64,000 nucleotides of DNA from a virus. Below the pieces are notes generated by a model that was given only the letters and a program-made list of their open reading frames with translations, ran no database searches and was not told the origin of the DNA. The position numbers and the translations under genes are program-made. Positions within the stretch are counted from its first letter, which is position 1; the number at the start of each line of letters is the position of its first letter. Location of the stretch: IMG/VR virus record IMGVR_UViG_3300033146_001382, positions 125,442 through 189,441 of that record. One strand, written 5' to 3'. Shown here piece by piece: positions 54,705 through 62,972 of this stretch.

Positions 54705-56852
54705 ATGACTCATGACTTAGAAAAACTACGACAATTAACTGAAACTTTGACTAGTAATGGGTATCTTACTGACCAGGCCGCCTCCTGGGAATATGCATTT
54801 GATTCGGTTAAAGCTTTTGTCTGCATTACTAACACCTCATTTAAAGTAAAATACATCAATAAACCTCTCCGTAATACTTTAAATATTAAATCAACTCAGT
54901 GTATAAATAAAGATTTACATACTATCTTAGGTGATAAAGATTTACAAAAAGAACTAGATAGTAATCAAGGGATACAAGATCCTAAAGAAGGGGTTATAAC
55001 CTATCAAGAGTTATTTATAAAATCATTCAATGGTTGGTATGAATCGCATAGACATGATATTACTACAGACCATGGTGAACTTATAGGATATATATATCTG
55101 TTTGTAGATGTCACACAGAAAAGATTAACACTAGAAGCATTGAAAAAGAGTGAAAAAAATTATAGATTATTGTTTGAATCTATGTTAGATGGTTTCGCAC
55201 TACATAAGATGATATTTAATGATGATGGCGAACCATATGATTATGAATTTATAAATGTAAATCCTGCTTTTGAAAAACTAACTGGATTAACTACTAAACA
55301 ATTAGTAAATCATTCTGCATTAGAAGTTTTACCTAAGTTGGAACAACACTGGTTTGATGTTTATATTAAAGTTGTACAGACTGGGGAGTCTTACAGATTT
55401 AGTAATTATTCTGCTGAATTATGTAGATACTATGACGTAGTAGTATTTAGACCTATGCCTGGTTATTTTGCGTGTATAATATCTGATATAACTGATAGGA
55501 CATTAGCAGAAGAGAATCTTCATATGTCAGAAAGACGTTTTCGTGAGATAATTGAAAAGGTAGAAGGTATAGCTATACGAGGGTATGATGATAAATTTAA
55601 TGTAATATTTTGGAATAAGGCATGCGAAACTTTATATGGGTACACTAAACAAGAAGCAGAAGGTGAAAATATAGAGGATTTAACTTTTTTAAAAGGCTTA
55701 AAGGTGCCTGTAGAAGAGTTTTTGGACAATTGGTTTGATGATAAAGAGCCACCATCTGCTCAGGAACTAATTTTAAAAAATAAACTAGGTGAAGACGTTC
55801 ATATATTTTCTTCTAATGTATTGCACCAAGGCGCAAATGGTAAAGAGATGTTTTGTATAGATATTGATTTAAACCCCATTAAAGATGCACAAAAAGCATT
55901 GTATGATACTAATTTACTTTTAAATGGTATACTGAATGCAATACCTGATGTAATAGTAGTACAAGATGCAGATCATAATGTAATTAAACACAATAAGACA
56001 GCAAAAGAGTTCTTTAATGTAACCTCTAAGAAGGCAGAGGGTAAAAAATGTTTTCATTACCTAGGGCGTGGTACAAATTGTACTGATTGTCAGACTGCTA
56101 TAGCTATGGCTACTAAAAAGCCTTCTAAATTAGAAAGGTATATAGAAGAATTACAAGGATGGTTTGATTGTAGATCATACCCTATTTTAGATACTGATGG
56201 TAATGTTACTAAGATAATAGAACACTTGAGAGATATATCAGACTGGAAAAAAGAACAAGAACTATATAAAGAAGTACATTTAAAAGTTGAACAGGCTTTC
56301 CATAGACTAAGATTCATAGTAAGAGCAGTTGATGGCTTTCTATGGGAAAAAACATGGGATATGGAAAAAAATGCATGGGTACTGACTTATGTTGACCCTC
56401 AATTTTGTAGGGAGTTTTATTACTTAAATGGCACTGATGAGGAAGTATGTGAAAAAGCATATGGTAAATCAACTGATAATTTATTACAGTTTGATTTCAA
56501 TGACCTAGATTATAAAAATTCATTTGCAAACGTATGTATGCTCACAGACAAACACTGTCTTGAGCAGGAAGAAGCCAGCGAGTATTTTGAGATGGGTTAT
56601 ATGAATAATGTTTGGACTATTTTAAAGGTAAGAAAAACTCCTCTATATGATGGCCGGGGTAAATGTACAGGTATTCTAGGATTTGCTAAAAATTGTTCTG
56701 ATGACTCTTATTCTATTAAAGAGCTTCTTGAAGTGGGTATACAAACGAATAGAATTAAAAAACTTACTACAGGAAGTAATAGATTAAAATTGTATTGGGT
56801 AGTACAAAGAAAAAATGAAGCAAAAGATTTAACTCATTTAGATTTTCCTTAA
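54705..56852 (+). CDS. Multi-PAS sensor protein (about five PAS/PAC modules) with no recognisable output domain
   Basis: SEKNYRLLFE, NVNPAFEKLTG, SERRFREIIE, WNKACETLYGY, and PAC-like ends FVDVT, ISDIT, LRDIS, KTPLYDGRGKCTGILG. No HisKA/HATPase/GGDEF/EAL motifs. Confidence 0.85.
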   Translation: MTHDLEKLRQLTETLTSNGYLTDQAASWEYAFDSVKAFVCITNTSFKVKYINKPLRNTLNIKSTQCINKDLHTILGDKDLQKELDSNQGIQDPKEGVITYQELFIKSFNGWYESHRHDITTDHGELIGYIYLFVDVTQKRLTLEALKKSEKNYRLLFESMLDGFALHKMIFNDDGEPYDYEFINVNPAFEKLTGLTTKQLVNHSALEVLPKLEQHWFDVYIKVVQTGESYRFSNYSAELCRYYDVVVFRPMPGYFACIISDITDRTLAEENLHMSERRFREIIEKVEGIAIRGYDDKFNVIFWNKACETLYGYTKQEAEGENIEDLTFLKGLKVPVEEFLDNWFDDKEPPSAQELILKNKLGEDVHIFSSNVLHQGANGKEMFCIDIDLNPIKDAQKALYDTNLLLNGILNAIPDVIVVQDADHNVIKHNKTAKEFFNVTSKKAEGKKCFHYLGRGTNCTDCQTAIAMATKKPSKLERYIEELQGWFDCRSYPILDTDGNVTKIIEHLRDISDWKKEQELYKEVHLKVEQAFHRLRFIVRAVDGFLWEKTWDMEKNAWVLTYVDPQFCREFYYLNGTDEEVCEKAYGKSTDNLLQFDFNDLDYKNSFANVCMLTDKHCLEQEEASEYFEMGYMNNVWTILKVRKTPLYDGRGKCTGILGFAKNCSDDSYSIKELLEVGIQTNRIKKLTTGSNRLKLYWVVQRKNEAKDLTHLDFP

Positions 56853-56877
56853 TAGATGAGTAAATTTTAAATAAGGT

Positions 56878-57429
56878 ATTATGGGGCTCCTATAAAAGGA
56901 GAAAAACTATGAAAAGAAATATGAAAGATTTAGTTAAGAAACACAGCTCTATAGGGAGTGTGTTTGCTTCTAATCGTTTCGATGACCTTTTTAGTGAAGT
57001 ATATGCACTAATGGATCATGCTTGGAATGATTGGGACTTAAGTGCTAGTGCGTTTCAAGCACTACAACCTAAAGCAACGTTTCCAAAGATAAACGTAGCA
57101 GAAACTGACACTGAGTATGAAGTTGAGATTGCAATATCTGGGTTTGATAAAGACAACCTAGAGTTGGAATTTAAAGACTCATGTCTATTCATTAAAGCTG
57201 ATAAAGCTGAAGAAGATAATGATACTAATAAAAAGTGGCTAAGAAAGGAAATATCAAGTCGGTCATTCAGACGGGCGTTACAATTCCCATTAAAAATTGA
57301 TAGTACAGCAATTAATAGTTCATATGATGATACTAGAGGTATTGTCACCTGTGTACTACCAAAGCAACTTAAAAAAGAACCAGATGTAGTAAAAATAACA
57401 ATAGACTAAACAAAAGGGAGCCCCATAAT
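56878..57429. repeat. Perfect 13-bp inverted repeat bracketing the Hsp20 gene (56878-56890 / 57417-57429)
   Basis: attatggggctcc and ggagccccataat are exact reverse complements, one in each flanking intergenic region. Confidence 0.9.
56909..57409 (+). CDS. Small heat-shock protein (Hsp20 / alpha-crystallin family)
   Basis: FPKINVAETDTEYEVEIAISGFDK, ISSRSFRR...FP, A-x-Y-x-x-G-like SSYDDTRGIVTCVLPK. Confidence 0.93.
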   Translation: MKRNMKDLVKKHSSIGSVFASNRFDDLFSEVYALMDHAWNDWDLSASAFQALQPKATFPKINVAETDTEYEVEIAISGFDKDNLELEFKDSCLFIKADKAEEDNDTNKKWLRKEISSRSFRRALQFPLKIDSTAINSSYDDTRGIVTCVLPKQLKKEPDVVKITID

Positions 57430-57450
57430 CCCAACACTAAAGGAGAATAT

Positions 57451-57675
57451 ATGGCTAGAAATTTTTATGATTGTGCCAAAAATGGCGGAAAGGTAGTGAG
57501 TAAAAAAACAAAGGAAGGTAAAATGATTAAAGTTTGTTATGACAAAGATGGTAATTCCCATGTAAAATTTAATAATAAGAAAAATAAAAATAGAAATAAA
57601 ATGGCACGAAACACTAAAGCTTCTGTGGCAAGCCTACAGAATTTAGCTGCACATTTCAATAACAATAGACATTAA
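57451..57675 (+). CDS. Small basic hypothetical protein
   Basis: K/N/R-rich 74-aa ORF with AAGGAG RBS. Confidence 0.6.
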   Translation: MARNFYDCAKNGGKVVSKKTKEGKMIKVCYDKDGNSHVKFNNKKNKNRNKMARNTKASVASLQNLAAHFNNNRH

Positions 57676-57690
57676 TAAAGGGATTTACTT

Positions 57691-58164
57691 ATGATAAGAT
57701 TTGAAGATGGAGACGATAACTTAGTAGAAGTATTTTTGGAAGTAATGGAGACTAGATTTCCACATTTTCAGTTTTTAAATTTTAAATTAGTGTATGATTT
57801 AAAGAAAAGAACTAAGAATGGTAAAACTACATTAGCTAGTATAGAACTAGCCTCTCCCAAAATTAAATATTTTTCACAAGATGATAAGGCTTCTGAGGGG
57901 TATGATTACATTTTGTTTATTGACAAGAAAGCTTGGGAGTTATCTAATGATAAAGATAAAAGACGACTTATCTCTCACGAAATGCGCCATGTATTTGTAG
58001 ATGAGAAAGATAAGGCTAAATTGGTAGGGCACGAAATAGAGGACTTCTATCAAGAAATAGAACTAAATAAAGATGACCCAGAATGGGGTCGCAATCTAGT
58101 TAGATTGGTTTCAGATGTTTATGATCAAGAAAAAGAAATGTCTAAACCAAATAAAGGATATTAA
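57691..58164 (+). CDS. Putative phage metallopeptidase-like protein
   Basis: LISHEMRH (HExxH) followed by GHEIEDF. Confidence 0.7.
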   Translation: MIRFEDGDDNLVEVFLEVMETRFPHFQFLNFKLVYDLKKRTKNGKTTLASIELASPKIKYFSQDDKASEGYDYILFIDKKAWELSNDKDKRRLISHEMRHVFVDEKDKAKLVGHEIEDFYQEIELNKDDPEWGRNLVRLVSDVYDQEKEMSKPNKGY

Positions 58165-58175
58165 GGAGTGAGCAT

Positions 58176-58424
58176 ATGAAAGACAAGAAAGAAGTAACTG
58201 CCCATGAGTGGGAAGTAGAAGTAAAGGCTAAACTTGATGAGTTTATTAATAATTTTCTTAGTGTTTCTAAAGAGTGTAATATGGCCACTAAGTATTTTTA
58301 TCCAGAATTGGAAGTATTTGAAACTCATACAGAATATGACAAATCTAAGACTAATGGTGCTGAACTTAGAATAGTTTTTAATTTTGTTGACAATGTTGAC
58401 TTATCCTCAATGAATTTTACTTAA
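58176..58424 (+). CDS. Hypothetical protein
   Basis: 82-aa ORF with AAGGAG RBS. Confidence 0.55.
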   Translation: MKDKKEVTAHEWEVEVKAKLDEFINNFLSVSKECNMATKYFYPELEVFETHTEYDKSKTNGAELRIVFNFVDNVDLSSMNFT

Positions 58425-58456
58425 TTATTTAACCTCATGTATAGTAGGAGTAAATT

Positions 58457-59011
58457 ATGGATAATGGGACTATTTATTTTAGAGATGGTGAGTTAATTAC
58501 AAAGAGTGGTGAAGTTAAAGTGTATCAAATGCAAGATGATTTATTCATGGAGGCCGGTAGGGGCAATCTTATAGCTTCAGACCGAGACTTAAGTGATTAT
58601 ATCTGGCAAATAAATAATAAACCATTTGGTAATTGTTTAGTTGTGGGACTAGGTCTGGGTGTATCAGCTAGGTATATCTCATCCATGGCTAAGGTGGATA
58701 AAGTTACAGTATTAGAAGAAGACGCAGATGTTATTACTGCACAAACTAATGCTACTCCTTTTGATAGTAATAAAATTACTATAATTAATAATAATATTTT
58801 ATCTTTTCTTTACACTACTAAAGAAAAATATAATTTTATTTTTATCGACTGCTACAATATAATTGATGAGGACACCTTCCCAGTTATAGCTGATATAGTA
58901 GCAGCCAGTAAAGTACCATTATCCACGAATGGTATTTTAATAGGGTGGTTAGATAGTAGTACACCTGAAATATTTATAGATGCATTTTATGGGTTATTCA
59001 CACTTCATTAA
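58457..59011 (+). CDS. SAM-dependent methyltransferase, spermidine-synthase-like fold
   Basis: CLVVGLGLG, VTVLE...DVI, YNFIFIDCY. Confidence 0.75.
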   Translation: MDNGTIYFRDGELITKSGEVKVYQMQDDLFMEAGRGNLIASDRDLSDYIWQINNKPFGNCLVVGLGLGVSARYISSMAKVDKVTVLEEDADVITAQTNATPFDSNKITIINNNILSFLYTTKEKYNFIFIDCYNIIDEDTFPVIADIVAASKVPLSTNGILIGWLDSSTPEIFIDAFYGLFTLH

Positions 59012-62393: not shown

Positions 62394-62972
62394 ATGAATT
62401 TAGATTATTTACAAAACAAAGTAGCTAATTGTAGGATGTGTAGTTTAGCTAAGACTAGGAAAGTTCCAGTGTTTGCTAAAGGTAATCCGTATGCTAAACT
62501 ATTAGTTTGTGGTATGTGTCCAGGTCCTGAAGAGAATAGTTTGGAGAATGAAATGGGCTGGCCATTCATTGGTAGGGCAGGAAAACAATTAGATGAAATA
62601 CTAGAAGACACAAAACTTACTCAGAAAGATGTTTATATAACTAATCTAGTAAAATGTTTTGTAAAGCCCGGCATTAGACTAGATGATAGAAATATAGATA
62701 GATGCATGCCTTATATGATAGAACAAATAGGAGCTATCTCCCCAAAGATTGTACTGGCATTAGGGGCAGACGCTGGAAGGGCCTTATTAAATAAACCTAA
62801 GTCTACTTCGTTATCTTCTATGCGAGGTAAGCGATATAAATTCACTGAGGCTATAAGTATTATAGTTACTTATCACCCCTCATATTTTTTTCGGTTGGGT
62901 GGTAGAAAACACGACCATTATAGTAGAATAATAGACGATATAGAATGGGCAAAGGAAATAATTAATAGATAA
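62394..62972 (+). CDS. Family-4-like (Fe-S) uracil-DNA glycosylase
   Basis: CRMCSL, GMCPG (motif A), PFIGRAG, TNLVKC, C-terminal YHPS (motif B). Confidence 0.88.
   Translation: MNLDYLQNKVANCRMCSLAKTRKVPVFAKGNPYAKLLVCGMCPGPEENSLENEMGWPFIGRAGKQLDEILEDTKLTQKDVYITNLVKCFVKPGIRLDDRNIDRCMPYMIEQIGAISPKIVLALGADAGRALLNKPKSTSLSSMRGKRYKFTEAISIIVTYHPSYFFRLGGRKHDHYSRIIDDIEWAKEIINR

Follow-up and report, generated by a model that had tools for sequence, protein, structure and literature searches.

Complementary arms flanking the hsp20 gene of a large uncultured phage almost certainly pair in its mRNA and probably govern when the gene is translated

The DNA studied here, a stretch of 64,000 nucleotides that we call the window, comes from an uncultured large phage whose virus record spans 189 kb, with a completeness estimate of 72%. 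It holds a gene for a small heat-shock protein (hsp20, Table 1), the product of which matches the Pfam family HSP20 (PF00011) with an E-value of 7e-17 and 61.8 bits against a cut-off of 20.8, and ends in ...KITID, thus carrying the I-x-I motif. This protein has no close cellular homologue, none exceeding 31% identity, and therefore neither a host nor a donor can be named. The gene is the first cistron in a gene order that the syntenic loci have in common, namely a PAS protein, hsp20, a protein of 74 amino acids and a phage metallopeptidase. The 74-aa protein (57451-57675) has no Pfam match; it shows a conserved N-terminal motif resembling FYDCAKNGGK, and its gene comes after hsp20 in most of the relatives compared (all but L103), being missing in L048, L051 and L052.

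Table 1. Features of the hsp20 locus and of its RNA, in window coordinates
Feature	Position	Strand	Remarks
Weak sigma-70-like promoter (predicted)	56837-56866	+	TTTAGA, 18 nt, TAAATT; 8/12 matches
5' arm of the long-range helix	56875-56891, core 56878-56891	+	3' end CUCCU (56887-91) is an anti-Shine-Dalgarno
Local leader hairpin, alternative fold of the 5' arm (predicted)	56879-56912	+	Two-tier, about -9 kcal/mol
Leader hairpin, outer stem (predicted)	UUAUGG 56879-84 : CUAUGA 56907-12	+	Covers the AUG
Leader hairpin, inner stem (predicted)	CUCCU 56887-91 : SD AGGAG 56897-901	+	
hsp20 Shine-Dalgarno (SD), AGGAG	56897-901	+	5 nt 3' of the end of the 5' arm
hsp20 ORF	56909-57409	+	166 aa, alpha-crystallin domain, C-terminal I-T-I motif
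Two-part hairpin inside the ORF	56923-56980 (+15 to +72 from the A of AUG; codons 5-24)	+	22 pairs; RNAalifold
3' arm of the long-range helix	57416-57432, core 57416-57429	+	6 nt past the stop codon; begins with SD-like GGGAG
3'-arm local hairpin	GGGA 57416-19 : UCCC 57429-32	+	Loop exposes GCCCCAUAA; conserved
Next cistron	SD 57440-45, ORF 57451-57675	+	Conserved 74-aa basic protein; gene order shared with relatives

The hsp20 gene is bracketed by an inverted repeat. The sequence ATTATGGGGCTCC at 56878-56890 returns as its exact reverse complement at 57417-57429, and over its full length the repeat pairs at 16 of 17 positions (56875-56891 with 57416-57432), the additional pairs being a U-G pair (56891:57416) and two outer G-C pairs past the single mismatch. 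The 3' arm stops 7 nt short of the SD that serves the next gene and, given the position of that SD and of the ORF behind it, therefore lies in an intercistronic spacer. The preliminary description of this DNA had located both arms, the CTCCT and AGGAG of the leader and the GGGA and TCCC of the 3' arm, and all of them are indeed in place. By itself, the repeat is only modestly improbable. Exact 13-mer inverted repeats with arms 50-1000 nt apart are not rare in this AT-rich genome (six observed in the window versus 3.9 expected), which is what can be said for a fortuitous match, but the other five are almost pure A/T, whereas a 13-mer repeat with at least seven G/C is expected 0.04 times per window and was seen in 3% of simulations. 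The 13-mer of the arms occurs at these two sites only in the 189-kb record. A blastn comparison of positions 55800-58400 with deposited phage genomes returned no match, and when viral contigs were searched with the 3'-arm 14-mer, 42 matches came up, all of them chance hits except for the known relative.

The comparative data carry far more weight. We assembled a syntenic set of 18 loci, comprising the window and 17 further loci with Hsp20 identities to that of the window from 85% down to 41%; the relatives were mostly gathered through homologous proteins and the contigs that encode them, and a protein-seeded metagenome scan gave two loci. The pairing of the arms is kept in these relatives, as the preliminary description required: the hsp20 leader and the sequence behind the stop codon share a helix in all 18 loci, a count that overstates independence because the loci share a phylogeny. 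These helices have 10-22 contiguous pairs, with a shuffle p of at most 0.023 in each case and 0/300 in most. RNAduplex over-extended the pairing when given the whole 110-nt flanks, and contiguous and gapped helix scoring were used instead; with one bulge or mismatch allowed, z ranges from 2.7 to 7.2 over the 18 loci. The arms themselves fall into six unrelated families, one resembling ATTATGGGGCTCC (13 loci) and the others represented by GCGGGGGTCCG, AGTGGGAGTCCACC, AGAACGGTATAACCTCT, AAGATATGGGTAATGGGTGTTA and CAGGGCTTGTAGT. Within the 13-sequence clade containing the window, aligned from arm to arm with MAFFT (alignment A2), 85% of cells pair, compared to 34-52% when the partner is slid along, and six helix pairs show compensatory change, with a covariation score reached by none of 500 shuffles. 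Clean double substitutions are found in this family from T-A to C-G (L047), from A-T to G-C (L098) and from G-C to A-T (L103). RNAalifold returned the long-range helix unprompted, as the outermost helix. In five distant lineages (L101, L048, L050, L051 and L052), the helix becomes longer once G-U pairs are admitted, and it does so on the sense strand only; yet one A-C position shared by the sub-clade of the window contradicts this strand bias, and the strand argument is therefore supportive rather than decisive.

Arms that are unrelated in sequence and nevertheless complementary are what RNA pairing predicts, and the comparative data, taken with the controls described below, make a chance match, an invertible segment, a cassette with terminal inverted repeats (TIRs) or a pair of protein-binding sites very unlikely. 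For chance, conservation at 18 loci together with covariation amounts to a refutation, and we attach practically no probability to it. The long-range 5'-3' pairing put forward in the preliminary description is thus borne out, covariation and the six arm families showing that it is real and selected at the RNA level. Judging from sequence comparison, the arms almost certainly pair in the mRNA and loop out the entire gene. We are confident that the element is a long-range RNA helix of 14-17 bp, maintained by selection and acting in cis, that joins the hsp20 leader to the spacer behind the stop codon and closes a loop of about 540 nt.

The preliminary description had also considered an invertible or mobilised single-gene cassette, and a repeat acting at the DNA level could equally consist of paired sites for a DNA-binding protein. 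What lends some credit to a mobile unit is that the arms and hsp20 are jointly present or absent among syntenic relatives, as expected for an inserted or deleted segment. Three syntenic relatives lack hsp20: in L107 (2697-2765) and L108 (2697-2765) the PAS gene is directly followed by the gene for the 74-aa protein, and in L109 (2640-2740) a receiver gene is followed by that of an 82-aa homologue of this protein. No arm-like sequence was found in these three intergenic spacers, and so the unit that is present or absent comprises hsp20 together with its arms. Against the cassette, the hsp20 unit has the same orientation in 18 of 18 loci with conserved synteny, no recombinase or transposase lies in it or beside it (the neighbours being the PAS protein, the 74-aa protein and the metallopeptidase), and its 13-mer is unique in the genome. 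Moreover, six unrelated arm sequences that stay complementary are incompatible with a protein site, and the G-U pairs of the distant lineages are on the sense strand only. A DNA-level origin of the repeat therefore appears highly improbable. Outside the syntenic set, 22 non-redundant distant phage hsp20 loci (25-37% identity) showed no flanking helix; the apparent helix of one of them, L066, was rejected as a local terminator matching by chance.

For the arms to pair in cis they must be on the same transcript, and a promoter is predicted upstream of the 5' arm (a weak match) with no terminator between the arms. A consensus scan of the window for sigma-70 promoters and terminators gave nothing at the hsp20 leader. 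At the homologous site, L101, L102, L103, L104 and L050 carry sigma-70-like promoters with 10-12 of 12 matches (TTGACA, TTGACT or TTGTCA followed by a TATAAT-like hexamer) that end 7-12 nt 5' of the arm, a spacing with which the message would begin with the arm. L048 offers no space for a promoter ahead of the arm. By homology, the hsp20 transcript of the window is expected to start at about 56872-56875, the foot of the 5' arm, so that this arm is probably at the transcript start or a few nucleotides from it. The preliminary description had feared that a -10 box within the arm itself (TATTAT, 56877-82) might leave it untranscribed. We rejected this -10 box, since the hexamer is not conserved (L101, L102); a promoter at the homologous upstream position would have transcription begin at the arm.

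Some further observations concern this promoter region. The -35-like hexamer of the putative hsp20 promoter (window 56837-56852; likewise in L102, L103 and L048) is encoded by the conserved L-D-F-P at the C-terminus of the PAS protein, and coding and promoter constraints therefore overlap there. L109, which has no hsp20, carries just 5' of its next gene a promoter (TTGACA ... TATCTT) that in L050 precedes hsp20. An A/T-rich hairpin, AACTCAT ... ATGAGT (56830-56863), straddles the PAS stop codon and is kept in L003, L047 and L094; in L093 it seemingly has altered bases that still pair. It could be a weak terminator or a part of the promoter region.

Folding predictions suggest what the helix might do. 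In the full-length RNA of the window, the long helix has a predicted pairing probability of 0.99 from 10 to 45 °C and of 0.97 at 55 °C, and it reaches 0.75-1.0 in the full-length folds of all 18 loci. The predicted energy of the arm duplex is between -23 and -34 kcal/mol across loci (-29.7 kcal/mol in the window), while the leader hairpins come to about -5 to -10 kcal/mol in 17 loci and to -16.9 in L051. Before the 3' arm exists, folding predicts that the 5' arm pairs with the adjacent ribosome-binding site (RBS; Table 1). Accordingly, the predicted probability that the SD is unpaired is 0.03 in the nascent RNA of the window versus 0.78 in the full-length RNA, bearing in mind that such predictions are noisy for RNAs of 600 nt; among 146 genes of the genome, the SD of hsp20 is predicted to be the third most sequestered. 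When the 3' arm of the window is blocked in silico, the ensemble pays 16.6 kcal/mol and the unpaired fraction of the RBS drops from 0.79 to 0.29. Blocking it costs a predicted 14-27 kcal/mol in every locus, closing the RBS by at least 0.2 in nine of them and opening it in one. In 13 of the 18 loci, the 5' arm is predicted to pair with the RBS (SD plus AUG) to a greater extent than shuffled arms, among them L048, L050 and L104 with their independent arm families.

These predictions speak in part for the bistable RBS switch proposed in the preliminary description. The fold of CTCCT onto the SD is recovered in the window and extends to the start codon, and the opening of the SD on the full-length RNA goes in the same direction in most relatives. 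What does not hold is its generality: L003 (the nearest relative), L051 and L052 have no predicted masking of the RBS, and in L103 it is weak. As masking is not universal, it cannot be the sole reason why the helix is retained. The local alternative proposed for the 3' arm is present and conserved, and its loop presents bases complementary to the central part of the 5' arm. Nucleation through such a loop contact is a layout familiar from antisense systems. We also note that the RNAalifold consensus pairs the hsp20 SD with an anti-SD-like UUCCC inside the ORF (57284-57288, codons F-P) without covariation, a pairing that may be either a folding artefact or an extra long-range competitor.

RNA thermometers are established for small heat-shock genes, as in ROSE elements and Synechocystis hsp17, and the SD of an hsp20 gene is here predicted to be masked by a local hairpin. 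The preliminary description referred to such thermometers; in one of this kind, either the local hairpin or the long helix would melt on heat shock and turn on translation. Yet folding at 10-55 °C predicts no melting behaviour: in the nascent RNA the SD is unpaired with a probability of 0.03-0.11, masking and long helix remain essentially unchanged over the whole range, and the full-length RNA is already open at equilibrium. A search of positions 56000-58500 against the 4227 curated families of Rfam gave no match at E <= 1. On the grounds of this predicted temperature-independence and of the lack of an Rfam match we have rejected the thermometer, which we hold to be very unlikely.

We propose instead that the arm pairing probably governs the timing of hsp20 translation, and that in this phage its likeliest, if still tentative, working mode is an activating switch. 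During transcription, the 5' arm would fold onto its own SD (CUCCU with AGGAG) and onto the start codon, closing the ribosome site. Once the polymerase has moved beyond the stop codon, the 3' arm would emerge, its SD-like GGGAG first, and be displayed in the hairpin loop. The two arms could then form the far more stable duplex, displacing the SD and the AUG from the 5' arm and opening the ribosome site. Translation would in this way be licensed solely on complete messages with an intact 3' end, and the duplex would bury the 5' end as well.

Alternatively, the helix could be a clamp for stability or processing with no role as a switch, fastening the message's 5' end to the spacer between the cistrons, in which case its overlap with the anti-SD would be secondary. 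This could take two forms. In one, the helix would protect the leader and the 5' end against decay, whether 5'-end-dependent or endonucleolytic, as in hbs of Bacillus subtilis; in the other, it would be a double-stranded RNase III site at which hsp20 is cut off from the cistrons behind it, setting how much there is of each, in the manner of yabJ-spoVG, icaR or rRNA precursors. The helix is universal in the clade and the masking of the RBS is not, which favours a clamp for the clade as a whole. Other points fit it too: the strong promoters of L101, L102, L103, L104 and L050 would leave the arm terminal on the 5' side; hsp20 comes first among the cistrons, with the 3' arm between it and the second; relatives without hsp20 have the next gene directly, in L109 behind a promoter of the L050 type; and RNase III has as a substrate the duplex of the yabJ 5' UTR with the intercistronic spacer. 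In hbs, the published pairing also spans 14 bp (PMC5737220). However, 14-17 contiguous bp (22 in L051) are short compared to classical RNase III sites, for which a duplex of about two helical turns is the yardstick, and a clamp leaves unexplained both the extreme predicted sequestration of the hsp20 SD and the complementarity to the RBS of the unrelated arms of L048, L050 and L104. We regard a clamp without switching as quite possible though doubtful, and the two roles are not mutually exclusive.

A two-part hairpin lies within the first codons of the hsp20 ORF, and in alignment A2 (13 sequences) 94% of its cells are paired, compared to 35-51% when slid. Ten of its pairs show compensatory change, a level reached by 0/500 shuffles, and the hairpin folds in L048 and L051 too. 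Counting this hairpin and the long helix, selection thus maintains at least two RNA structures in the hsp20 message. We noticed that the hairpin begins just beyond the footprint of an initiating ribosome. It may belong to the same RNA architecture as the long-range helix, and for the explanation as a whole, in which a selected helix, an RBS switch and the hairpin of the ORF form a single architecture, we see about even chances. To go one step further, the hsp20 message might be a self-contained and portable "completion sensor" made of a masked RBS, a strand-invading trigger behind the stop codon and a structured start of the ORF; this we offer as a speculation that is rather unlikely to be right in full. 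If true, such a device would avoid the production of C-terminally truncated Hsp20 subunits devoid of the I-x-I motif for oligomerisation, and would constitute a natural, activating, intramolecular toehold switch, with a polarity opposite to that of hok and icaR.

Long-range pairing between the 5' and 3' parts of an mRNA is already a known kind of interaction, with hbs, icaR, yabJ-spoVG and hok as examples. In the hok mRNA of plasmid R1, pairing of the ends (tac/fbi) keeps the full-length mRNA inert until its 3' end is trimmed. As in our case, end pairing in a short mRNA has to compete with metastable hairpins that arise co-transcriptionally on the 5' side, but the end pairing of hsp20 is predicted to be activating, and neither an antisense RNA nor a toxin is involved. 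In synthetic toehold switches, a hairpin sequestering the RBS is reportedly opened by an invading complementary trigger. The hsp20 system differs from these in being natural and in having its trigger in cis, at the 3' end of the message.

In B. subtilis, the hbs mRNA forms a fully complementary 14-nt helix between its 5' and 3' UTRs, with an energy of -19 kcal/mol, that modulates cleavage by RNase Y (Braun, Durand and Condon 2017, PMC5737220). There, as here, the leader of a short gene (highly expressed in the case of hbs) pairs in cis with a site behind the stop codon; however, the 5' element of hbs overlaps the RNase Y site and its 3' element precedes the terminator (PMC5737220), whereas the 3' arm of hsp20 is intercistronic and its 5' arm is predicted to mask the RBS. 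The hsp20 pairing is, in addition, documented by covariation rather than by mutants. The geometry is the same in the yabJ-spoVG transcript of Staphylococcus aureus, a polycistronic message in which the first cistron's 5' UTR and the intercistronic spacer form a duplex that serves as an RNase III substrate (bioRxiv 10.64898/2026.09.18.752551), with the difference that the predicted effect in hsp20 falls on the enclosed first cistron. Also in S. aureus, the 3' UTR of icaR contains an anti-SD, UCCCCUG, that blocks the SD (Ruiz de los Mozos et al. 2013, PMC3868564). Both cases have a 3' element of the mRNA that pairs with the 5' initiation region across the ORF, which in icaR alters translation (PMC3868564). 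The 3' arm of hsp20, in contrast, is no anti-SD directed at the SD: it is itself SD-like (GGGAG) and binds the anti-SD of the leader (CUCCU), which is predicted to free the SD. Thermometers of small heat-shock genes and the self-repression by IbpA (PMC10474464) share with hsp20 the masking of the SD by leader structure and control at the post-transcriptional level, but the hsp20 message has neither predicted melting nor an Rfam match, and its opener would be a distant part of the same RNA. Our literature search found no paper on long-range 5'-3' mRNA pairing around a phage hsp20 gene. The case is distinct from the known ones by its predicted activating polarity, its intercistronic 3' arm and the depth of its natural covariation.

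Few long-range 5'-3' pairings are documented in bacterial or phage mRNAs, and most of them rest on a single organism and on mutant analysis. The pairing described here, from a clade of large uncultured phages, adds deep natural covariation around one recognisable gene. Its arms, unrelated from one lineage to another and always complementary, represent a natural set of compensatory mutants with which to probe the action of such pairings. Should the predicted polarity prove right, the element would be the activating counterpart of hok and icaR and a natural analogue of engineered toehold switches. It also suggests that these phages control their own small heat-shock protein post-transcriptionally by means other than a thermometer.

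Within its own genome, the flanking complementarity of hsp20 stands out as well. When the flanks of 188 ORFs of the record were scored for helices, hsp20 reached 34 and tied for the highest score (mean 18.6, sd 3.5). The other ORF scoring 34 is on the minus strand and has an identical string listed for both arms, presumably an artefact. Two further ORFs have a high score (33) with many G-U pairs, one at 62394-62972 of the window and the other at 105940-107514 of G000.
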